Shown here one piece after another: positions 38,394-49,154 of a stretch of 64,000 nt of DNA (its first letter is position 1; every line of letters starts with the position of its first letter). The notes under the pieces are model-generated. The model was not told the DNA's origin. It searched no databases and worked only from the letters and a program-made list of their open reading frames with translations. This DNA comes from Escherichia phage phiC120. The DNA lies in sequence record KY703222. One strand, written 5' to 3'. The position numbers and the translations under genes were made by a program.

Positions 38394-38401
38394 TATAAAT
38401 A
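38394..38401 (+). promoter_or_regulatory. late promoter TATAAATA for gene 34
   Basis: Exact TATAAATA about 35 nt upstream of the gene 34 start. Confidence 0.65.
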
Positions 38402-38435: not shown

Positions 38436-41400
38436 ATGGTTGACATCAAACGTAAGTTCAGGGCCGAAGATGGTCTTGACGCAGGCGGTGATAAGATAGT
38501 TAACGTTGCGCTTGCTGACCGCACAGTTGGCACCGATGGCGTGAACGTTGACTTTTTGGTGCAAGAAAACACCGTACAGAATTATGACGATACGCGCGCG
38601 TATACAAAAGATTTTATTGTTCTTTATGATAATCGTTTTTATCAAGCTTTAAGCGATATTCCAGCTCCGGCAGGCCCTTTCTCTTTGGCTAAATGGAAGG
38701 CAACTCGTACAGATGCAGAATGGATTACAGTTCAAGGCGGAGATTTCCAATTATCAGTAGGTAACTCTATTGCGGTTGATACTTCAGCTGGCACTGATAT
38801 TAATTTCACTTTGCCTCAAAATCCTTTAGATGGCGATACAGTTATTTTGTCTGATATTGGCGGTAGAGTAGGCTATGTAAAAGTTCAAATTACTGCAGCG
38901 GCTCAAAGTATTGTAAACTTTAGAGGACAGCAGGTTCGTTCAGTTTTAATGACGCACCCAAAATCTAAAATGGTCTTCATTTTTAGCAACCGCCTATGGC
39001 AAATGTATGTTTCTGATTACGAACGTAATGCAGTCACAGTAACTCCTGCTAAGCCATATCAGGCGCAACCTAACGATTTTATCATTCGACGTTTTACATC
39101 AGCCGCTCCTATTAATATTACATTGCCTCGCAATGCTAATAATGGCGATATTATTAATTTAGTTGTTTTAGACAAATTAAACCCATTATATCACACAATT
39201 GTCAAAACTTACGATGATACAACTTCTATACGAGAAGCCGGTGTTCATGTAGCAGAAGGACGTAATACTGCGGAAGCATTCTTTGTTTATGATTCTGCTA
39301 ATAGCTTATGGCGTGTTTGGGAAGGTGACCAGAAATCTCGTTTACGTATAGTTCGTAATGATACTGATTTACACCCTAATGAAGAAGTTCTTGTTTTTGG
39401 AACTAATAATGATACAATCTCGACGGTAAATCTTACTTTGCCTACAGATATTTTGTCTGGTGATACTGTTAAAATATCGTTGAATTATATGCGTAAAGGG
39501 CAAACTGTAAAAATTAAAGCTGCCGAAGGCGATACAATTGCTAGCAGTATTTCTTTATTACAGTTCCCAAAACGTTCAGAGTATCCACCTGATGCACAAT
39601 GGGTTTCTGTTAATGAGTTGGAATTTAATGGTGATACTTCGTATGTACCTGTACTTGAGTTAGCTTATATAGAAGATTATTCATCTGAAACAAAATATTG
39701 GGTAGTTCAACAAAACACCGTAACCGTCGAACGAGTCGATGCATCGAGCAATACAACTCGAGCTCGTTTAGGTGTTATTGCTCTTGCTTCTCAAGCGCAA
39801 GCAAATGTTGATTTAGAAAATGCTCCTGGTAAAGAACTGGCTATTACTCCGGAAACATTAGCAAATCGTACAGCAACTGAAACTCGTCGTGGTATTGCTC
39901 GTATTGCAACAACTGCACAAGTTAACCAGAACACCGATTTTGCATTCCAAGACGACTTGATTATTTCTCCTAAGAAATTGAACGAACGTACAGCAACTGA
40001 AACCCGTAGAGGTGTTGCTGAAGTTGCAACTCAGGCTGAAACTAATGCTGGCACAGATGATACCACTATTATTACTCCTAAGAAATTGGATGCTCGTCAA
40101 GGTTCTGAAGTTTTATCTGGTATTGTAAAATACACATCTACGACTGGTACTACAGCTGCTACTATTCGTGGTAATGCTGGGACTAACGTTTATAACAAAG
40201 CTGTAGATAATTTAACTATTTCTCCAAAGGCTCTTGACCAGTATAAAGCTACCCCTACTCAACAGGGCGCAGTAATTCTTGCTATTGAAAGTGAAGTTAT
40301 CGCTGGCGAATCACAAGCCGGTTGGGCTAATGCTGTAGTGACTCCTGAAACTCTGCATAAGAAAACTTCTACTGATGGACGTATTGGTTTAATTGAAATT
40401 GCTACGCAAGCAGAAACTAACACTGGAACTGATTATACTAGAGCAGTAACGCCTAAGACGTTAAATGATAGGAAAGCTACGGAAGGATTATCCGGCATAG
40501 CCGAAATTGCTACGCAAGTTGAATTTGATACTGGAACTGACGATACTCGTATCTCGTCTCCACTGAAAATTAAAACTCATTTTGATTCTTCTGACCGTAC
40601 CAGTGTTAATTCTGATTCCGGACTTATTGAAGAAGGAACCTTGTGGAACCATTATACTCTTGATATTTCTAAAGCAAATGAAACACAACGCGGTACACTT
40701 CGCGTAGCGACCCAAGCAGAATCTAATGCAGGAACTTTAGATGATGTTCTTATTACTCCTAAAAAGCTTTTAGGGACTAAGTCCACTGAAACATCTGAAG
40801 GTGTAATTAAGGTTGCTACTCAAGATGAAACTGTAACGGGAACTTCTGCTAATACTGCTGTATCTCCTAAGAATTTAAAATGGATTGTTCAATCAGAACC
40901 AACATGGGCTGCTACTACGGCAATTCGTGGATTCGTTAAAACTTCATCTGGTTCTATTACATTCGTTGGTGACGATACTCAAGGTAGTACCCAGGACCTG
41001 AATCTTTACGAGAAAAATAGTTATGCTATTTCTCCATATGAATTAAACCGTGTACTTGCTAACTATTTGCCATTGAAAGCTAAAGCCGTAGATAGTAATC
41101 TGTTAGATGGTCTAGATTCTCTTCAGTTCATCCGTAGAGACATCGACCAGACGGTTAATGGTTCTTTAAGTCTTACTAAACAGACCAACCTGAGTGCTCC
41201 TTTAGTATCTACAAGCACTGCTTCTTTTGGGTCCGAAGCATCTGTTACTCGTAGATTAACTCTTAATGACTCTAGCGGTTCCGAAATAGTTTTCACTAAA
41301 GGAACTCAATCTCTTAGTAATAAAGAGAATTTCGTTGTTAGAGCATGGGGTAATAGCGCTACAGATGGTGCCCGTGATACAATATTTGAAGCTGGTGACG

Positions 41401-42269
41401 AAACCGGATACCATTTCTATTCTCAGCGCGCTTCTGATAATAAAGTATCATTTAATATTAATGGAACACTTTATTCAACAGGTATTGTTTCTACAAATGG
41501 ATTAAATGTTACAGGTGTTTCTACCTTTACCGGGCCTATTAGTGCTACAGGTGAAATTGTTTCTAGTTCTCCTATTGCATTCAGAGCTATTAACGGTAAC
41601 TATGGTGTTATGCTTTATAATGCTGGTGACAGTTCTTATATTGCATTAACTAACTCAGGTGACCAGACAGGGACGTTTAATAACTTACGCCCGATCACGA
41701 TTAACAATGCCACAGGATTAGTTCGTCTTGACAATGGTGTTCAAATCACAAGTGGTGCAACAATAACTACCGGTGGGTTAACTGTAAATAACAGGATTAT
41801 TTCTAATGGCGTTAAAACTGCCACTGTTTATACCGATAAACCAACAGCTTCTACTGTAGGTTTTTGGTCTATTGACATTAACGATTCTGCTGTATATAGC
41901 CAATTCCCTGGTTACTGGACACGTGATAACAAAGGTAACCGTGACCAAGAAATTAAATATCCTGGTACTTTGACTCAATTCGGCAATAGCTTAGATTCGC
42001 TTTATCAGGATTGGATTTGTTATCCTACAGGTGCAAATGGTGGTAGTATTCGTTATACTCGTACCTGGCAGAAAAATAAAGATGCTTGGACTTCATTTGC
42101 AATGGTATTTGATAGTGGCAACCCACCTTCACCTAGCGATGTCGGTGCTATCCCATCTGATAATGCTGTTATTGGAAACCTTACTGTTCGAGACTTCTTA
42201 CAATTAGGAAATGTGAGAATTGTTCCAGACCCGGTTAACAAAACCGTTAAATTTATATGGGTTGAATAA
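38436..42269 (+). CDS. 34: gp34 long tail fibre proximal subunit
   Basis: 1277 aa (T4 gp34 about 1289 aa); internal tandem ~35-aa ATxAE...GTDDT..ITPKKL repeats; gene order 34-35-36-37-38. Confidence 0.9.
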   Translation: MVDIKRKFRAEDGLDAGGDKIVNVALADRTVGTDGVNVDFLVQENTVQNYDDTRAYTKDFIVLYDNRFYQALSDIPAPAGPFSLAKWKATRTDAEWITVQGGDFQLSVGNSIAVDTSAGTDINFTLPQNPLDGDTVILSDIGGRVGYVKVQITAAAQSIVNFRGQQVRSVLMTHPKSKMVFIFSNRLWQMYVSDYERNAVTVTPAKPYQAQPNDFIIRRFTSAAPINITLPRNANNGDIINLVVLDKLNPLYHTIVKTYDDTTSIREAGVHVAEGRNTAEAFFVYDSANSLWRVWEGDQKSRLRIVRNDTDLHPNEEVLVFGTNNDTISTVNLTLPTDILSGDTVKISLNYMRKGQTVKIKAAEGDTIASSISLLQFPKRSEYPPDAQWVSVNELEFNGDTSYVPVLELAYIEDYSSETKYWVVQQNTVTVERVDASSNTTRARLGVIALASQAQANVDLENAPGKELAITPETLANRTATETRRGIARIATTAQVNQNTDFAFQDDLIISPKKLNERTATETRRGVAEVATQAETNAGTDDTTIITPKKLDARQGSEVLSGIVKYTSTTGTTAATIRGNAGTNVYNKAVDNLTISPKALDQYKATPTQQGAVILAIESEVIAGESQAGWANAVVTPETLHKKTSTDGRIGLIEIATQAETNTGTDYTRAVTPKTLNDRKATEGLSGIAEIATQVEFDTGTDDTRISSPLKIKTHFDSSDRTSVNSDSGLIEEGTLWNHYTLDISKANETQRGTLRVATQAESNAGTLDDVLITPKKLLGTKSTETSEGVIKVATQDETVTGTSANTAVSPKNLKWIVQSEPTWAATTAIRGFVKTSSGSITFVGDDTQGSTQDLNLYEKNSYAISPYELNRVLANYLPLKAKAVDSNLLDGLDSLQFIRRDIDQTVNGSLSLTKQTNLSAPLVSTSTASFGSEASVTRRLTLNDSSGSEIVFTKGTQSLSNKENFVVRAWGNSATDGARDTIFEAGDETGYHFYSQRASDNKVSFNINGTLYSTGIVSTNGLNVTGVSTFTGPISATGEIVSSSPIAFRAINGNYGVMLYNAGDSSYIALTNSGDQTGTFNNLRPITINNATGLVRLDNGVQITSGATITTGGLTVNNRIISNGVKTATVYTDKPTASTVGFWSIDINDSAVYSQFPGYWTRDNKGNRDQEIKYPGTLTQFGNSLDSLYQDWICYPTGANGGSIRYTRTWQKNKDAWTSFAMVFDSGNPPSPSDVGAIPSDNAVIGNLTVRDFLQLGNVRIVPDPVNKTVKFIWVE
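39840..40880 (+). repeat. tandem ~35-aa coding repeats within gp34 (fibrous repeat units)
   Basis: At least six copies of T-ETRRG-A-IATxAxxNxGTDxTxxITPKxL-like units in the translated sequence. Confidence 0.6.
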
Positions 42270-42277
42270 GAGGTTAT

Positions 42278-43402
42278 ATGGAAAAATTTATGGCAAGGTT
42301 TGGACAGGGATACGTCCAAACGCCATTTTTATCGGAAAGCAATTCAGTTAGATTTAAACTAAGTATAGCGGGTTCATGCCCGCTTTCAACAACTAATCCG
42401 TATATTTTGTTCCAAAATGAGCCTTTAGGGTTGCAGTCTTTTGGTATTGGACTAAATGTTAGGGTAATAAATCCGGAAAATGGAACTATAGTTGATAGTA
42501 AATTATACAATTTTGCGCCTACAAATAATGCAACTTCAGCTGCATTTATTTCGTTTGTTAATACATACGCAGATAATTTCATTTTCGCATTTATTTCTAA
42601 TAACAAATTTAATTTGCCGCCAGAAATAATTGAATGGTTTAAAGCTGCCGGGAGTTCAGTTATACCGTCAATTGAAGTTGCTAGTCTTGTTGATATTTCA
42701 TATTCAGCGTTTTATGTTTCAGGTAAAAATACTATTGCATTAGAACACATAAAATACAGTAATAAGAAAACAATTTCGGATTACTCAACTCCATTAGATA
42801 TTGTATATGACTCTATTGCTGATATAGGTGCTACCGGCTATCCTAGACGTACATATGAAGCTCTAGAAACGTTTTTATCTCCTGTTGGAAGAACTAACAA
42901 TGAAATAAAAAGGATGCCTACATCATCCCTTGTTACTCCTATCGCAAACTATGGATTAAAGCCTACAGATTTTCTTTATTTGAAATTTCAATTAATGGCT
43001 GATGAAGCATTACTAGAGGAAGGAACCACAAGACTTTCAATTCGTTTCTTTAAGTCTCCATCTAGCTCTCCTATATTGTCTAAAGATATAAACTTTGACG
43101 GAACTGCTGGTGAATGGAAGCTATATGAAGAATACGTTGAAATACCAGCTGAAGCCGATGGCTTTACAGTATATTGTTACCGTACGGCCCCAGTCGGTCA
43201 AGGTGGACTAAGAAATGTTATTTTCACTGAAGTATCATGTAACGGAAGTATAGCAAAACCTGCCGAGTTTGGCCTAAACGGTATTCGTGCTAATTACATC
43301 GATGAATCATTAATCGGTAATGATATAATGGACTTGCCTACTCAGTTATCTAACGACACAGGTAAGGTATTTGGGCAGGAATTTAAAGAGTACACAGAAT
43401 AA
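42278..43402 (+). CDS. 35: gp35 long tail fibre hinge (knee) protein
   Basis: 374 aa (T4 gp35 about 372 aa); gene order. Confidence 0.8.
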   Translation: MEKFMARFGQGYVQTPFLSESNSVRFKLSIAGSCPLSTTNPYILFQNEPLGLQSFGIGLNVRVINPENGTIVDSKLYNFAPTNNATSAAFISFVNTYADNFIFAFISNNKFNLPPEIIEWFKAAGSSVIPSIEVASLVDISYSAFYVSGKNTIALEHIKYSNKKTISDYSTPLDIVYDSIADIGATGYPRRTYEALETFLSPVGRTNNEIKRMPTSSLVTPIANYGLKPTDFLYLKFQLMADEALLEEGTTRLSIRFFKSPSSSPILSKDINFDGTAGEWKLYEEYVEIPAEADGFTVYCYRTAPVGQGGLRNVIFTEVSCNGSIAKPAEFGLNGIRANYIDESLIGNDIMDLPTQLSNDTGKVFGQEFKEYTE

Positions 43403-43403
43403 A

Positions 43404-43419
43404 GGAGACCGAAGTCTCC
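43404..43419 (+). terminator. terminator hairpin GGAGACCGAAGTCTCC plus T-run after gene 35
   Basis: Perfect stem-loop followed by TTTT. Confidence 0.6.
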
Positions 43420-43427
43420 TTTTCGCG

Positions 43428-43435
43428 TATAAATA
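43428..43435 (+). promoter_or_regulatory. late promoter TATAAATA for gene 36
   Basis: Exact TATAAATA about 27 nt upstream of the gene 36 ATG. Confidence 0.65.
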
Positions 43436-43461
43436 CTTTAATATTAATAAGGAGACACGAA

Positions 43462-44118
43462 ATGGCCGATTTAAAAGCCGGAAGTACAGTTGGTGGTTCC
43501 GTCATATGGCATCAAGGCAATTTTCCTTTAATGCCAGCTGGCGATGACATCCTATATAAAACATTTAAATTATACACTGAATATAACAAGCCAAAAGCGG
43601 CTGATAACGATTTCGTATCTAAAGCAAACGGCGGGACATATCTCAAAAAGGTAATCTTTAACGAAGGTGTTGCAGTCAAAACAGCAGATGACCAAACGAA
43701 TGGTATTTTTTCTGGTGGTGGTGACGCCGCGACATTCGACCAAACAAACATGGATATTGTTTCGTGGTATGGTATTGGGTTTAAATCATCTCAAGGTACC
43801 GGTGAAAGAACTGTTGTAATTGATACTCGCACCGGTAATATAAGTTCTAAAGGCGTTATTGAAGCATCTCAATTCAGAGCCACAACGTTAGCACCTTTAA
43901 ATAATTACGACCTTACTCGCAAAGATTATGTTGATAGTCAAATAAATACAGTTAATGCTAATGCAAACAGTCGCGTACTCCGTTCAGGAGATACGATGAC
44001 CGGCGCTCTAACAGCCCCAAACTTTTTCTCACAGAATCCTGCATCTCAACCCTCGCATGTTCCACGATTTGACCAAATTGTTATTAAGGATTCTGTTCAA
44101 GATTTCGGCTATTATTAA
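43462..44118 (+). CDS. 36: gp36 long tail fibre distal connector
   Basis: 218 aa (T4 gp36 about 221 aa); gene order. Confidence 0.8.
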   Translation: MADLKAGSTVGGSVIWHQGNFPLMPAGDDILYKTFKLYTEYNKPKAADNDFVSKANGGTYLKKVIFNEGVAVKTADDQTNGIFSGGGDAATFDQTNMDIVSWYGIGFKSSQGTGERTVVIDTRTGNISSKGVIEASQFRATTLAPLNNYDLTRKDYVDSQINTVNANANSRVLRSGDTMTGALTAPNFFSQNPASQPSHVPRFDQIVIKDSVQDFGYY

Positions 44119-44126
44119 GAGGACTT

Positions 44127-47100
44127 ATGGCTACTTTAAAACAAATACAATTTAAAAGAAGCAAAACTGCAGGAGCACGTCCTGCCGCTTCAGTATTAGC
44201 CGAAGGTGAATTGGCTATAAACTTAAAAGACCGTGTACTTTTTACTAAAGATGACCAAGGAAATATTATTGATCTGGGTTTTGCTAAAGGCGGTAGTATT
44301 GACGGGAATGTTATTCATACAGGTAATTATAACCAAACTGGCGATTATACTTTAAATGGTGTCTTCACTCAGACTGGTAATTTTAATTTAACTGGTATTG
44401 CTCGAGTAACTCGTGATATTATCGCCGCTGGGCAGATTATGACTGAAGGCGGAGAACTTATTACAAAAAGTTCAGGTACAGCACATGTTCGTTTTTTCGA
44501 TAACAATAGCCGCGAACGTGGAATCATTTATGCCCCGGCTAATGATGGTTTAACTACACAAGTACTTAATATCAGGGTTCAAGACTACGCCGCTGGTGGT
44601 GAAAGCACCTATGCATTTTCGGGCAGTGGACTATTTACTTCACCTGAAGTATCAGCATGGAAATCTATTTCGTCTCCACAAATTCTGACCGACAAAGTTA
44701 TTACAAATGGGAAGAAGACAGGCGATTATGATATCTATTCATTATCAAATAACACTCCAATGGCAGAAGGCGAAACGGCTATTAACCACCTCCGTGTTAT
44801 GCGAAATGCTGTAGGAGCAGGTATTTTCCACGAAGTTAATGTTAATGACGGAATAACCTGGTATTCCGGAGATGGCTTAGACACTTATCTTTGGTCGTTT
44901 AACTGGGCCGGTGGATTGAAAGCGGGTCATTCTATTTCTATAGGTATCCCAGGCGGTCCAAAAGGACATTCTGAATTAGGAACTGCTTCGATTGCTCTTG
45001 GTGATAATGACACCGGGTTAAAATGGCATCAAGATGGATATTTCTATACAGTAAACAACGGAACAAAAACTTTCATCTATGGTCCAGGAGAAACGCAAAG
45101 CCTTAGAAAAATGGTTATGGCTTATTCTCCAGATGGGCTTCTTATGACAACGCCACCGACAGAAAACTATGCTTTGGCCACTGTTGTTACTTACCATGAT
45201 AATAACGCGTATGGTGACGGTCAAACTCTTTTAGGTTATTACCAAGGCGGTAACTATCATCACTATTTCCGCGGTAAGGGTACTACAAACATTAATACTC
45301 ATGGCGGTTTGTTAGTTACTCCAGGTAATATTGATGTTATTGGCGGTTCTGTTAATATAGATGGTAGAAATAATTCTTCTACACTAATGTTTAGAGGCAA
45401 CACAGCAGGATACAGCTCGGTTGATAATATGGATATTAAAGTTTGGGGTAATACGTTTGTTGATCCAAGCGGAGGTATCCGTAAAAACATTATGGAAATT
45501 TCTGATGCAACTAGCTGGATGAGCTATATTCAAAGACTTACTACTGGCGAAGTAGAAATGAACGTTAATGGTTCATTTGAATCATCTGGTGTTACTGCTG
45601 GAGATAGAGGAGTTCACACAACAGGTGAAATTTCATCTGGAGCAGTGAATGCTCTTCGTATTTGGAACGCAGATTATGGAGCCATTTTTAGACGTTCAGA
45701 AGGAAGTCTTCATATTATTCCAACTGCTTATGGCGAAGGCAAAGATGGCGATATCGGTCCACTTCGCCCGTTTAGTATGGCTTTAGATACCGGTAAAGTT
45801 ACTATTCCAGATTTACAATCAAGTTACAATACGTTTGCTGCGAATGGCTATATTAAATTTGTTGGTCATGGAGCGGGTGCCGGCGGTTATGACATTCAAT
45901 ATGTTCAAGCGGCTCCTATTTTCCAGGAAATCGATGATGACGCTGTAAGCAAATATTATCCTATTGTTAAACAGAAGTTTTTAAACGGTAAATCCGTTTG
46001 GTCTTTAGGTACCGAAATTGAATCAGGTACATTCGTTATTCATCATCTGAAAGAAGATGGTTCACAAGGCCATGCGTCTCGTTTTAATCAAGACGGTACT
46101 GTTAACTTCCCAGATAACGTTCTGGTCAGCGGCGATATTAACATGAAAGGCGTGATGACTTTTGACCCCGGACGTTTAGGATCACGAGATTATTTTAAAT
46201 TTAACCATTGGGGTGATAGTAATAATGGTCGTGATAACATCATCCAGTTAGAAGATAGTCGAGGCGCTCATTTTTCCACTGAACGTACTTTAGCGACAGG
46301 TGCAATTAAAACTCGTTTCTTTGGCGAAACCTTCACTGACGGTACATTATACCTAAATCAGATGAATAATAGCTCTGAACGATTCTCTATCAACAATTGG
46401 GGAAATTCAGAAGTTGGTCGCGCGGCAGTATTGGAAGTCGGCGATTCAAAAGGTTATCACTTCTATGCTGAACGCAGGACAGATAACAGTTTGATGTTTG
46501 ATGTTGCTGGTGCTTTGACCGTGCATGGACCTAACGGAATAACCATCAAAAACTCAACTGGTGCACGACATATCTGGTTTAGAGATGATAGCGATGCAGA
46601 AAAGGCTGTTATCTGGGCTACAGATGATGGTATTTTACATATACGAAATAATTATGGGGGTTCATTTAGTCATCACTTCCGGGGTGCAATGATTCTAGCG
46701 GGAGAGCGTGTTCCATATAATAGTGAATACGCTCTTATCCGTGGTAATATTTCCGGTGGTGCATGGGTAGACTGGCGAGATCGTCCGGCTGGATTATTGG
46801 TAGACTGTCAGGACTCACGAAATCAAGCATATAACATTTGGAAAGCTACTCATTGGGGCGAACAGCACCTTGCGGCGATGGGTGTTCATGCTGGCGGTGG
46901 TAATCCTCATGTTGTATTGCATGTGGGTGGGAATGATTATGCATTTGCATCTAACGGTGATTTTACTGCTGGTGCTGCTGTATATTGTAACGACGTTTAT
47001 ATTCGTTCTGACCGTCGTCTGAAAATTAATGTTGAAGACTACGAAGAGAATGCGGTGGATAAGGTAAATAAACTCAAAGTTAAAACCTATGATAAAGTTA

Positions 47101-47360
47101 AATCTCTTTCTGACCGCGAAGTTATCGGCCATGAGATTGGTATTATCGCACAGGATTTGCAAGAAGTATTACCGGAAGCTGTTAGCACTTCTAGTGTCGG
47201 ATCTCAGGATAACCCAGAAGAAATTTTAACAATTTCAAACTCTGCTGTGAACGCGCTTTTAATTAAGGCCATTCAGGAAATGAGCGAAGAAATTAAAGAA
47301 TTGAAAACGCCTCTCTTTACTAAAATTGCTCGCAAAATTAGTAAATATTTTAAATTCTAA
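44127..47360 (+). CDS. 37: gp37 long tail fibre distal subunit with C-terminal intramolecular chaperone-like domain
   Basis: 1077 aa; N-terminus MATLKQIQFKRSKTAGARPAASVLAEGELAINLKDR typical of gp37/gp12-type fibres; C-terminal ~110 aa (DKVNKLKVKTYDK...GIIAQDLQEVLPEAV) resembles self-cleaving chaperone domains. Confidence 0.85.
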   Translation: MATLKQIQFKRSKTAGARPAASVLAEGELAINLKDRVLFTKDDQGNIIDLGFAKGGSIDGNVIHTGNYNQTGDYTLNGVFTQTGNFNLTGIARVTRDIIAAGQIMTEGGELITKSSGTAHVRFFDNNSRERGIIYAPANDGLTTQVLNIRVQDYAAGGESTYAFSGSGLFTSPEVSAWKSISSPQILTDKVITNGKKTGDYDIYSLSNNTPMAEGETAINHLRVMRNAVGAGIFHEVNVNDGITWYSGDGLDTYLWSFNWAGGLKAGHSISIGIPGGPKGHSELGTASIALGDNDTGLKWHQDGYFYTVNNGTKTFIYGPGETQSLRKMVMAYSPDGLLMTTPPTENYALATVVTYHDNNAYGDGQTLLGYYQGGNYHHYFRGKGTTNINTHGGLLVTPGNIDVIGGSVNIDGRNNSSTLMFRGNTAGYSSVDNMDIKVWGNTFVDPSGGIRKNIMEISDATSWMSYIQRLTTGEVEMNVNGSFESSGVTAGDRGVHTTGEISSGAVNALRIWNADYGAIFRRSEGSLHIIPTAYGEGKDGDIGPLRPFSMALDTGKVTIPDLQSSYNTFAANGYIKFVGHGAGAGGYDIQYVQAAPIFQEIDDDAVSKYYPIVKQKFLNGKSVWSLGTEIESGTFVIHHLKEDGSQGHASRFNQDGTVNFPDNVLVSGDINMKGVMTFDPGRLGSRDYFKFNHWGDSNNGRDNIIQLEDSRGAHFSTERTLATGAIKTRFFGETFTDGTLYLNQMNNSSERFSINNWGNSEVGRAAVLEVGDSKGYHFYAERRTDNSLMFDVAGALTVHGPNGITIKNSTGARHIWFRDDSDAEKAVIWATDDGILHIRNNYGGSFSHHFRGAMILAGERVPYNSEYALIRGNISGGAWVDWRDRPAGLLVDCQDSRNQAYNIWKATHWGEQHLAAMGVHAGGGNPHVVLHVGGNDYAFASNGDFTAGAAVYCNDVYIRSDRRLKINVEDYEENAVDKVNKLKVKTYDKVKSLSDREVIGHEIGIIAQDLQEVLPEAVSTSSVGSQDNPEEILTISNSAVNALLIKAIQEMSEEIKELKTPLFTKIARKISKYFKF

Positions 47361-47366
47361 CAACAA

Positions 47367-47381
47367 GGGGGAAATGCCCCC
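47367..47381 (+). terminator. hairpin GGGGGAAATGCCCCC after gene 37
   Basis: 5-bp G/C stem followed by TTT. Confidence 0.4.
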
Positions 47382-47396
47382 TTTGGAGTATAAATT

Positions 47397-48176
47397 ATGG
47401 CAGTAGTTGGAGTTCCTGGCTGGATTGGAAGTTCAGCCGTAAATGAAACGGGCCAGCGCTGGATGAGTCAAGCAGCTGGTCAATTAAGATTGGGTGTTCC
47501 TTGCTGGATGAGTCAATTTGCAGGTCGCTCAAGAGAAATTATTCACACTCTTGGAGCAGACCATAACTTTAATGGTCAATGGTTCCGTGACCGTTGTTTT
47601 GAAGCCGGTGGCGCTCCTATAGTGTTTAATATCACAGGCAACTTAGTATCATATTCTAAAGACGTTCCTTTATTCTTCATGTATGGTGATACTCCTAACG
47701 AATATGTTACTTTGAATATTCATGGTGGTGTTCATATGTGGGGCCGAGGTGGTAACGGTACTGTAAACGGAAACCCAGGCACAAATGGCGGCGATGTAAT
47801 CCAAAATGATATCGGCGGAAGACTTCGTATTTGGAACTATGGCGTTATTGCATCAGGCGGTGGTGGTGGTGGTGCAGTGTCATTACAGAATAGCTGGGCG
47901 CCAAATGCTACAGCAGGTGGCGGTGGTGGTAGACCATTTGGCATCGGCGGAGGCGGCGTTAATTGGCCGGGTGGTAATGCTAGTTATGACGCCCCGGGCG
48001 GCGCCGGTTACACTTCCCAATTCGGCGGAGGCAATGGCGGCGATGCTGGAGGTCGGGGCGGAGATGGATGGGGTAATCACTTATCTAGATCTGGTGGCGG
48101 TGCTCCTGGCAGAGCAGTATTCGGAAGTTCACCGTCATGGGGTGCTACAGGCACAATCTACGGCTCCTGGATTTAA
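47397..48176 (+). CDS. 38: gp38 tail-fibre adhesin of the T2 type (glycine-rich motifs)
   Basis: 259 aa; C-terminal half has poly-glycine islands (GGGGGGA, GGGGGR, GGGG) separated by short variable segments, as in T2-type receptor-recognising gp38. Confidence 0.8.
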
Positions 48177-48194
48177 ACGATAATACCTCTCAAT

Positions 48195-48202
48195 TATAAA
48201 TA
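48195..48202 (+). promoter_or_regulatory. late promoter TATAAATA for holin gene t
   Basis: Exact TATAAATA upstream of RBS GGGAGG and the t start codon. Confidence 0.6.
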
Positions 48203-48209
48203 TTGATAA

Positions 48210-48881
48210 ATGGGAGGTAATATGGCAGCACCAAAAGTATCATTTTCGCCTAGTGATATTTTATTTGGGTTGCTAGACCGCATTTTCAAAGATAACGCCT
48301 CTGGAAATATTCTTATTTCAAGAGTTGCTGTTGTAGTTCTTTTGTTCCTAATGGCACTAATATGGTACAAAGGGAGTATTTTTATGGATTATTACGTGAG
48401 GTCGAAATATGATACTTACACAGAAGTAATTCAAAAAGAAAGAAATACACGATTTGAATCTGCGGCTTTAGAACAACTACAAATAGTCCACGTCACATCA
48501 AGGGCGGATTTTAGTTCGGTGTATTCTTTCAGACCTAAAAATCTAAATTATTTCGTCGACCTTATTGCGTATGAAGGTAAGTTACCTAGCACAGTAACTG
48601 AAAAATCTATGGGAGGATTTCCTGTCGATAAAACAACAGCAGAATATTCGGTCCATTTAAGTGGACTTCACTTTACTTCTAAAACAGATTTTGCTTTCTT
48701 ACCTACCAAAACAAAAACTCCGGAATTAGCATATATGTATAGTTGTCCTTACTTCAATTTGGATAACATATATGCTGGAACTGTTTCTATGTATTGGTAT
48801 AAGGGGTCGGACGTGTTAAATGAAGAACGCTTGGCTGCAATATGCAACCAAGCAGCAAGGATATTAGGGCGAGCTAAATAA
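48210..48881 (+). CDS. t: holin T
   Basis: 223 aa; single N-terminal transmembrane segment; C-terminus AICNQAARILGRAK and PKNLNYFVD motifs close to remembered T4 holin. Confidence 0.9.
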   Translation: MGGNMAAPKVSFSPSDILFGLLDRIFKDNASGNILISRVAVVVLLFLMALIWYKGSIFMDYYVRSKYDTYTEVIQKERNTRFESAALEQLQIVHVTSRADFSSVYSFRPKNLNYFVDLIAYEGKLPSTVTEKSMGGFPVDKTTAEYSVHLSGLHFTSKTDFAFLPTKTKTPELAYMYSCPYFNLDNIYAGTVSMYWYKGSDVLNEERLAAICNQAARILGRAK

Positions 48882-49154
48882 TTAGTTGTTAGAATACATC
48901 GTCAAATGGCGATAAATATTTTCAAAACCTTCATTGAATTCACTAATCAGTGTTTTCTTTTCTTCGGCAGTTAAATTTGTAATTAGTTTTCTGAACGAAT
49001 TCTGATTTAGCTGTCGACCATCTTTTTTAATTCCAATCTCATTCAAGAATCCGATGAAATTTGCTCGGTCTTCAACAATATCTTCCCTAGAGAATTTAAT
49101 CAAAATAGAAGCAATAGTAATAATTTCACGTACAATTTCGATATCTTTATTCAT
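48882..49154 (-). CDS. asiA: AsiA anti-sigma-70 factor
   Basis: 90 aa; MNKDIEIVREIITIASILIKFSREDIVEDRANFIGFLNEIG... close to remembered T4 AsiA. Confidence 0.9.
   Translation of the reverse strand: MNKDIEIVREIITIASILIKFSREDIVEDRANFIGFLNEIGIKKDGRQLNQNSFRKLITNLTAEEKKTLISEFNEGFENIYRHLTMYSNN

Follow-up and report, generated by a model that had tools for sequence, protein, structure and literature searches.

Long-tail-fibre tip of Escherichia phage phiC120: a gp37 precursor with a predicted self-cleaving chaperone and a gp38 adhesin assigned to the OmpF type

How does a phage whose tail-fibre genes occupy the same positions as those of T4 recognise its host: with the tip of gp37, or with a separate gp38 adhesin, and through which receptor? 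A sequence-only reading of the stretch analysed here (64,000 nucleotides of Escherichia phage phiC120, KY703222; the window) had proposed a T2-type receptor-recognition module made of the following two genes.

44127-47360, + strand: gene 37, distal long-tail-fibre subunit precursor, 1077 aa (ORF; phrog_1699)
47397-48176, + strand: gene 38, tail-fibre tip adhesin, 259 aa (Pfam, phrog_2056, PDB)

The genome that carries them is that of an RB69-like (Mosigvirus) T-even phage. We consider it very likely that the module is the distal receptor-recognition end of a Mosigvirus long tail fibre of the T2/T6/S16 kind, and nothing found contradicts this explanation.

Gene order and late transcription

Open reading frames and Pfam/PHROG profile matches give the order 34-35-36-37-38-t around the module, with gene 38 directly after gene 37 and before the holin gene t. 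Two signals accompany the genes.

43428-43435, + strand: T4-type late promoter motif TATAAATA, exact match, upstream of gene 36
47366-47382, + strand: GC-rich intercistronic hairpin, GGGGG-AAATG-CCCCC (RNA fold and comparison across phages)

Equivalent TATAAATA motifs precede gene 34 (38394) and t (48195). Since the 10 copies in the whole window are at chance level (7.5 expected), only the three just upstream of genes 34, 36 and t are meaningful. The copy before gene 36 is probably the start of a late transcript of genes 36, 37 and 38, its promoter role being taken from knowledge of T4. The hairpin between genes 37 and 38 is followed by an SD sequence, GGAG, at 47385-47388; nine further T-even phages, T4 among them, have a hairpin at this position, with stems of different sequence. 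Neither ARAGORN nor Rfam at the gathering threshold found a tRNA or structured RNA in the window, and scanning 43300-49000 for sigma-70 promoters and terminators returned promoter-like sites at chance level only, which is uninformative, as expected for late genes. An alternative-frame ORF of 125 aa within gene 38 (47806-48183) was rejected as a GGN-rich by-product that lacks independent support.

The gp37 shaft and its C-terminal chaperone

The profile phrog_1699 ('long tail fiber protein distal subunit') covers gp37 end to end with 1317 bits. The protein can be divided as follows.

44127-46076, + strand: gp37 aa 1-650, conserved proximal shaft, N-terminal end adjoining gp36 (nucleotide identity)
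45378-45809, + strand: gp37 aa 418-561, gp34-like trimerisation domain (Pfam, PDB matches)
46077-46886, + strand: gp37 aa 651-920, variable distal shaft allele (nucleotide identity profile)
46887-47006, + strand: gp37 aa 921-960, beta-helical tip ending DVYIR960 (alignment to the S16 gp37 tip 6f45_A; AF2 strands)
47007-47024, + strand: putative autoproteolysis motif S961-D-R-R-L-K966, Ser nucleophile and Lys base (homologue conservation)
47007-47357, + strand: gp37 aa 961-1077, intramolecular chaperone (IMC), Peptidase_S74, 117 aa (Pfam PF13884, AF2, Foldseek)

The proximal shaft has 80-100% nucleotide identity to RB69, fPS-2 and AR1, and by BLASTP gp37 aligns with RB69 over aa 1-669 (89%) and with T4 over aa 1-640 (35%). 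Within this part, the Pfam family Gp34_trimer matches aa 453-550 (E 1.9e-7) and the gp34 chains 4uxe and 5nxf match aa 418-561 (E about 4e-12). The distal shaft is variable, with 28-57% nucleotide identity to RB69, fPS-2 and AR1 versus 89-100% to ESh27 and Bas46; the allele is distantly T6-like (33% at the amino acid level) and common only to a Mosigvirus subset, and a PDB search found no solved homologue of aa 651-920. An additional binding site in this stretch, perhaps one for the LPS core, is unlikely. If there were one, it would account for the reported LPS dependence of phages that carry the module, and host range would be set by two cassettes that can be exchanged independently: the shaft allele and the set of hypervariable segments (HVS) in gp38.

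The last 117 aa of gp37, C-terminal to the fibre, bear the marks of an IMC. PF13884 matches aa 961-1019 with 54.7 bits (cut-off 22, E 1.3e-14), and AF2 predicts an IMC fold in which short helices and beta-hairpins precede a long helix at the C-terminus, at pLDDT 83-95 over most of the domain and 79 in two blocks. The model is a monomer prediction, and the tip before the IMC has moderate confidence in it (pLDDT 54-79). The top 11 Foldseek matches in the PDB are all IMC/ICA domains (7dc3, 3gud, 3gw6), with an E-value of 2e-5 for 7dc3, modest values of 0.03-0.09 for 3gud and 3gw6, and probabilities of 0.89-1.0; a profile search also finds 6f45_A, 8jov, 7dc3 and 3gud. The endosialidase, GA-1 neck appendage and MyRF chaperones (3GW6, 3GUD, 7DC3) share the fold, the Ser-x4-Lys motif at the start of the domain and a C-terminal location behind a trimeric beta-helix, but their sequence identity is only 9-21% and their upstream passenger domains are different. 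The sequence-only reading had noted a segment of about 110 aa that resembles self-cleaving chaperones and had suggested looking for a conserved Ser/Lys site. The Pfam match, the fold and the S961/K966 pair agree with that view, while the size of the segment is corrected to 117 aa counted from the conserved Ser.

Ser961, Asp962 and Lys966 are invariant across 60 diverse homologues. SDRRLK aligns with SDRRIK of S16 gp37, with SDERHK of GA-1 and with the MyRF ICA domain, and the deposited GA-1 IMC chain 3gud_A begins with SDERHK. On this conservation, gp37 is predicted to be cut between R960 and S961 (DVYIR960^S961DRRLK); the published predicted cut in fPS phages is DVYIR^SDGRLKI (PMC7917993). 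Processing of the gp37 C-terminus was described first for T2 (Drexler 1986, as cited in PMC3157838), where gp37 of T2 and T6 is said to be cut proteolytically and then capped by gp38. In Salmonella phage S16, the IMC cleaves itself and uncovers the gp38 docking face (PMC7917993), and PMC7917993 and PMC3157838 give autocatalytic release after trimerisation as shown for the S16 homologue and T2 gp37. By analogy, we predict that the chaperone here is released after gp37 trimerisation and that the tip (aa 921-960), once cleaved, is the gp38 docking face, as in the S16 structure (PMC6851490, PMC7917993). The S16 gp37(3)-gp38 tip (PDB 6F45) shares with this module the trimeric tip and an IMC with an SDRR(I/L)K site; S16 gp37 aligns with aa 921-1061 here, and its tip sequence is DLNVS versus DVYIR.

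The gp38 adhesin and its receptor

That gp38 is a glycine-rich protein of 259 aa with the architecture of an adhesin, rather than of the 183-aa T4 chaperone, was a central point of the earlier reading and withstands closer analysis. The reading frame is exact, glycine makes up 25% of the protein and 35% of residues 110-259, and glycine runs occur at 154-159 (GGGGGG), 174-178 (GGGGG) and 184-187 (GGGG). The Pfam matches are far beyond chance, both against a cut-off of 25: PF21721 (Gp38_N) at aa 1-42 (73.5 bits, E 1.4e-20) and PF05268 (GP38) at aa 47-259 (278.5 bits, E 5.7e-83). The profile phrog_2056 ('tail fiber protein; host specificity') spans aa 1-259, and two solved structures align with gp38 along its whole length, the S16 adhesin 6f45_D (E 1e-48) and the PP01 receptor-binding domain 9v85 (E 1.6e-72). 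Comparison across 17 adhesins that have different receptors divides gp38 into the following parts, GRM denoting the glycine-rich motifs.

47397-47540, + strand: aa 1-48, attachment domain, T6 subtype (Trp prongs W9, W22, W37)
47541-47741, + strand: aa 49-115, conserved central part, assigned as beta-helix (conserved alignment block)
47742-47759, + strand: aa 116-121, GRM1, GRGGNG (G116, R117, G118, G119, G121 invariant)
47760-47786, + strand: aa 122-130, HVS1, TVNGNPGTN (variable, indel-rich columns)
47853-47873, + strand: aa 153-159, GRM2, SGGGGGG (G154-G158 invariant)
47874-47915, + strand: aa 160-173, HVS2 (not one conserved column in 17 adhesins)
47916-47951, + strand: aa 174-185, GRM3 (G174, G175, G177, G178, R179, P180, G182, G185 invariant)
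47952-48029, + strand: aa 186-211, HVS3, two loops around invariant G201 (variable columns)
48030-48059, + strand: aa 212-221, GRM4 (G212, G214, G215, G218, G221 invariant)
48060-48098, + strand: aa 222-234, HVS4 (variable, indel-rich columns)
48099-48173, + strand: aa 235-259, GRM5 and conserved C-terminal end (G238, A240, G243, P246, W248, G252, G256 invariant)

The C-terminal half thus consists of five GRM blocks with invariant Gly and four variable, indel-rich segments between them. The gap-poor alignment to 6f45_D and 9v85 points to a polyglycine-II sandwich fold, and the beta-helix assignment of aa 49-115 follows the description of the S16 structure (PMC6851490). The three Trp residues of the attachment domain are invariant in the 17 adhesins, and their role as prongs comes from the 6F45 structure (PMC6851490). 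S16 gp38 shares the three-Trp attachment domain, beta-helix and polyglycine-II sandwich architecture at about 50% amino acid identity; it differs in attachment subtype (G--PW versus VGVPGW here), in its HVS and in its receptor, Salmonella OmpC. The proposal that the segments between the glycine islands determine host range is in keeping with their variability in the alignment and with PMC3157838, PMC6851490 and PMC12892980, which identify such segments as host-range determinants and the last of which places PP01 loop-D in a region corresponding to HVS3.

Tip assembly probably proceeds as follows. The 1077-aa gp37 precursor would be made late, and its C-terminal Peptidase_S74 chaperone would drive trimerisation of the beta-helical shaft before excising itself by Ser961/Lys966 autoproteolysis at the Arg960/Ser961 bond. 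Cleavage would lay bare a trimer tip, flat and hydrophobic, with NDVYIR at its end; one gp38 monomer would dock there via its N-terminal three-helix attachment domain, with Trp9, Trp22 and Trp37 as prongs. The remainder of gp38 would form the beta-helix and the polyglycine-II 'sandwich' built of the conserved GRMs, and the distal loops, the four HVS, would contact the receptor. Most of these steps, including the cleavage, the 3:1 stoichiometry and OmpF binding, are carried over from homologues. For near-identical alleles, published work has the protein staying at the fibre tip and binding the receptor.

Several near-identical genes are annotated 'distal long tail fiber assembly catalyst' in GenBank records, as would suit a gp38 that acts only as an assembly catalyst or chaperone while the gp37 C-terminus binds the receptor. 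This is the arrangement of T4, where gp37 has no IMC and a receptor-binding needle of its own, and the 183-aa gp38 is an unrelated chaperone absent from the virion. The annotation is a historical carry-over from T4, and even the records of RB69 and T4 note that in the T2 subfamily gp38 is the adhesin. The gp38 studied here has no detectable similarity to T4 gp38 (BLASTP best E 2.1; 19% identity in a forced alignment) and instead matches solved adhesins over their full length, so a T4-type chaperone was rejected. A T4-type needle was rejected too, as homology with T4 gp37 is confined to aa 1-640, no T4 gp37 tip or needle-domain structure is among the PDB matches, and the gp37 C-terminus has the features of a self-removing IMC. 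A T4-like division of labour is hence hardly credible for this module.

If gp38 is the adhesin, its receptor can be predicted from its loops. From Bas46, gp38 differs only by G72S and I183L, both outside the HVS (in the beta-helix and in GRM3, respectively), and beyond residue 48 G72S is the sole difference from RB69. Bas46 and RB69 carry exactly the same four HVS, HVS2 among them, and fPS-2 agrees wherever its residue is determined (position 208, within HVS3, is an X in its record). Given these shared loops, the phage almost certainly uses the porin OmpF as its primary receptor and depends on the LPS core. OmpF is the receptor of Bas46 and Bas47, together with the LPS deep core for Bas46 (supplementary table of PMC8594841), of fPS-2 (PMC7917993), of FL33 and FL34 (PMC12032242), and of RB69 and RB51, with the LPS core for RB69 (PMC3157838).

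A receptor other than OmpF, such as OmpC, Tsx or FadL, or the need for a second protein receptor, is very improbable in light of these identities and of the four independent studies that found OmpF for this allele. Nonetheless, receptor use in the Gp38 family can switch with one or two substitutions in the HVS, and even with a single one (SV76 versus T2, PMC3157838), so the two differences from Bas46 could matter in principle, even though they sit in the beta-helix and GRM3. RB69 was also reported to depend on FhuA (Trojet 2011), and FL33 and FL34 show a weak TolC effect (PMC12032242); the receptor picture may thus exceed OmpF alone.

Allele type and relation to other T-even phages

By sequence, the allele is a T6-subtype attachment domain fused to an OmpF-type specificity domain of the RB69/Bas46 kind. 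In the attachment domain (aa 1-48), a single residue separates gp38 from T6 and 23 of 48 separate it from RB69, while the RB69 specificity domain (aa 49-259) is the same save G72S. The distal 40% of RB69 gp37 including the IMC is also a different allele, at about 40-55% nucleotide identity. The T6 DNA is 87-89% identical at the end of the IMC and the start of gene 38. T2 and T6 have the same modular design with unrelated HVS and other receptors, FadL for T2 (gp37 of 1341 aa) and Tsx for T6. Because gp38 is 51.5% identical to T2 gp38 (68-69% to T6), the name 'T2-type' given in the earlier reading holds for the architecture only and not for the sequence.

The closest relatives carry the same genes in the same order with the same intergenic hairpin. 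In Shigella phage ESh27 (ON528737), the module DNA is 97.4% identical (98.0% for gp37 and 99.2% for gp38 as proteins); in Escherichia phage ChristianSchoenbein (Bas46, MZ501056), gp38 is also 99.2% identical and gp37 is 89.6% identical, the difference lying mainly in aa 151-350 (55-88% nucleotide identity).

The module is therefore ordinary and already well described, the sole refinement being its allele type. The architecture has been published in genetic work from 1985-2011, the structures for S16 (2018) and PP01 (2026), and the receptor used by this very allele for RB69 (2011), the BASEL phages (2021) and fPS-2 (2021). The result opens no new question, and its use is limited to annotation and host-range prediction: gene 37 can confidently be annotated as encoding a precursor whose IMC cleaves itself off and gene 38 as encoding an adhesin of the OmpF type, and host-range engineering has obvious targets in the HVS at the positions listed above.

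Gene layout and putative expression signals

DNA similarity places the window in Mosigvirus, among the RB69-like T-even phages. Both open reading frames of the module, genes 37 and 38, lie exactly at the coordinates proposed by the sequence-only reading. Across all 4050 bases the module is 97.4% identical in DNA to that of Shigella phage ESh27, and 653 phage records match it.

Features of the module and its surroundings (window coordinates; neighbouring genes named from Pfam and PHROG models)
38394-38401, T4-type late-promoter motif TATAAATA, immediately 5' of gene 34
38436-42269, gp34, 5' of the module
42278-43402, gp35, 5' of the module
43428-43435, T4-type late-promoter motif TATAAATA, immediately 5' of gene 36
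43462-44118, gp36, 5' of the module
44127-47360, + strand, gene 37 (ORF, 1077 aa)
47366-47382, GC-rich hairpin GGGGG-AAATG-CCCCC, between the gene 37 stop and the gene 38 Shine-Dalgarno
47397-48176, + strand, gene 38 (ORF, 259 aa)
48195-48202, T4-type late-promoter motif TATAAATA, immediately 5' of t
from 48210 (as listed), T-type holin, 3' of the module

Across the window TATAAATA occurs no more often than chance would give, and only its placement is suggestive; because copies precede genes 34, 36 and t, the arrangement suggests that genes 36, 37 and 38 form a single late transcript, as in T4. Between genes 37 and 38, a hairpin is found at the same spot in nine of nine comparison phages (ESh27, Bas46, fPS-2, RB69, AR1, T2, T6, S16 and T4), with stems and loops that differ among them, several having UUCG loops, which suggests a conserved intercistronic RNA element that perhaps stabilises the transcript or tunes gp38 translation relative to that of gp37.

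Two side observations concern the neighbouring genes. The listed holin ATG at 48210 gives 223 aa and an alternative ATG at 48222 gives 219 aa; the latter is favoured because of TATAAATA at 48195-48202 and GGAGG at 48213-48217. The Bas46 (ChristianSchoenbein) holin is annotated from the start equivalent to 48222, whereas that of RB69 is annotated as the longer form. Residues 58-131 of the gp35 hinge protein match Pfam ILEI (interleukin-like EMT inducer, PF15711; E 6.5e-7) at 30.2 bits, barely over the curated cut-off of 27.

Adhesin architecture of gp38

The proposal that gp38 has the architecture of an adhesin rather than of the 183-aa T4 gp38 was borne out. Pfam Gp38_N and GP38 match aa 1-42 (E 1.4e-20) and aa 47-259 (E 5.7e-83), respectively, and PHROG 2056 (tail fiber protein; host specificity) matches end to end. 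Among solved structures, the adhesin of Salmonella phage S16 (6f45_D) aligns over the full length (E 1e-48) and the PP01 gp38 receptor-binding domain (9v85) aligns at E 1.6e-72. Similarity to T4 gp38 was absent (BLASTP E 2.1); given this and the adhesin matches, a T4-type chaperone is ruled out.

Glycine makes up 25% of gp38 and 35% of residues 110-259, in runs of four to six. The GGN codons account for a local rise in G+C to 0.48 and for a stop-free alternative frame at 47806-48183 (+); the 125-aa ORF in this second frame, over the glycine-rich half of gene 38, is most simply a by-product of GGN-rich sequence without stop codons.

The alignment of gp38 with 16 other adhesins, including those of T2, T6, RB14, RB32, AR1, S16 and RB69, whose published receptors are FadL, Tsx, OmpA, OmpC and OmpF, delimited four hypervariable segments (HVS) between glycine-rich motifs (GRM), as had been proposed. 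Invariant positions comprise these motifs and W9, W22 and W37 of the attachment domain.

Segments of gp38 (aa)
116-121, GRM1, GRGGNG, invariant positions
122-130, HVS1, variable and indel-rich
153-159, GRM2, invariant positions
160-173, HVS2, variable and indel-rich
174-185, GRM3, invariant positions
186-211, HVS3, variable and indel-rich
212-221, GRM4, invariant positions
222-234, HVS4, variable and indel-rich
235-248, GRM5, invariant positions

Trojet et al. 2011 had defined the same layout by genetics (PMC3157838). The S16 complex accounts for it in structural terms, with the motifs forming a polyglycine-II sandwich and the hypervariable segments the distal loops (PMC6851490), and loop contacts between PP01 and OmpC were later demonstrated through cross-linking (PMC12892980). 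Outside the window, a 25.7 kb contig of an NCBI E. coli assembly carries a 303-aa predicted protein (P0007) in which the N-terminal ~155 aa of a gp38 adhesin, up to and including GRM2, run straight into a gp37 tip and intramolecular chaperone (…VYCNDVYIRSDRRLK…). Either assembly or annotation produced a chimera, or the protein is a genuine recombinant at the glycine-rich motif.

The intramolecular chaperone of gp37

Pfam Peptidase_S74 matches gp37 aa 961-1019 at 54.7 bits (cut-off 22), and the domain begins S961-D-R-R-L-K966 directly after ...NDVYIR960. The Ser/Lys autoproteolysis site sought in gp37 is present as S961/K966, the S, D and K of the motif being invariant when gp37 is aligned with 59 homologues, the most distant at 27% identity. 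The AlphaFold2 model of aa 880-1077, with pLDDT 83-95 across most of the chaperone part, consists of short helices and two beta-hairpins, closed by a long terminal helix. Its best 11 Foldseek PDB matches are all intramolecular chaperone or autocleavage domains, namely the MyRF ICA domain 7dc3 (E 2e-5), GA-1 3gud and endosialidase 3gw6, and the next match stands at E about 1. The alignment profile matches 6f45_A (S16 gp37, SDRRIK), 8jov, 7dc3 and 3gud, whose deposited chain starts at the Ser aligned with S961. The chaperone-like fold anticipated for this end of gp37 is therefore found, and the sequence and model support an intramolecular chaperone, predicted to be self-cleaving; the predicted cut at R960/S961 would yield a 960-aa mature gp37 and a released fragment of 117 aa. 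In S16, autocleavage exposes the gp38 docking face, and the fPS phages, which share the DVYIR tip sequence with phiC120, have a predicted cut DVYIR^SDGRLKI (PMC7917993). That T2 and T6 gp37 are processed was already known from Drexler et al. 1986, cited in PMC3157838.

Elsewhere in gp37, aa 418-561 (window 45378-45809) resemble the gp34 proximal-fibre trimerisation domain, with matches to Pfam Gp34_trimer and to PDB 4uxe and 5nxf (E about 4e-12); the likeness is evidence of domain sharing between both half-fibres.

Mosaic alleles and the probable receptor

Sliding nucleotide identity and BLASTP mapped the module as a mosaic. Residues 1-650 of gp37 are common to RB69, AR1 and fPS-2 at 80-100%, gp37 aa 651-1077 with gp38 aa 1-48 represent an allele other than that of RB69 (about 40-55% nucleotide identity), and gp38 beyond aa 48 is 98-99% identical to RB69. 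The end of the chaperone and the gp38 attachment domain are T6-like (87-89% nucleotide identity), with one amino-acid difference from T6 in gp38 aa 1-48. This cassette pattern is of the usual kind, and it fits the lock-and-key rule by which each gp37 C-terminal subtype is paired with one gp38 N-terminal subtype (PMC3157838). Judged by sequence, phiC120 gp38 joins a T6-subtype attachment domain to an RB69/OmpF-type specificity domain. Accordingly, the earlier label 'T2-type' holds for architecture but not for allele, gp38 being only 51.5% identical to that of T2.

The adhesins of Bas46, ESh27, NHEP29, phage 132 and G2540 are 99.2% identical to gp38, and that of fPS-2 is 98.5% identical. Two substitutions alone separate gp38 from that of Bas46, G72S of the beta-helix and I183L within GRM3, and from residue 49 onward RB69 differs only by G72S; all four hypervariable segments are therefore the same as in Bas46 and RB69. 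The fPS-2 segments agree as well wherever a residue has been determined, the record carrying an X at 208 in HVS3. Published receptors are OmpF and the LPS deep core for Bas46 and Bas47 (PMC8594841, supplementary table), OmpF and the LPS core for fPS-2 (PMC7917993), OmpF with a minor TolC effect for FL33 and FL34 (PMC12032242), and OmpF for RB69 and RB51, for which FhuA and full-length core are also reported (PMC3157838). From these receptors of the same allele, we strongly infer that phiC120 gp38 would bind OmpF. A separate binding function in the distal shaft of gp37 that varies between alleles (aa 651-920, structure unsolved) is very improbable, and no evidence of one was found.

Overall, the module described from the sequence is confirmed, and its interpretation as an adhesin with hypervariable segments between glycine-rich motifs and a gp37 chaperone is supported. 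The module is a near-identical copy of a described system, the structure, processing and receptor of which are already published.
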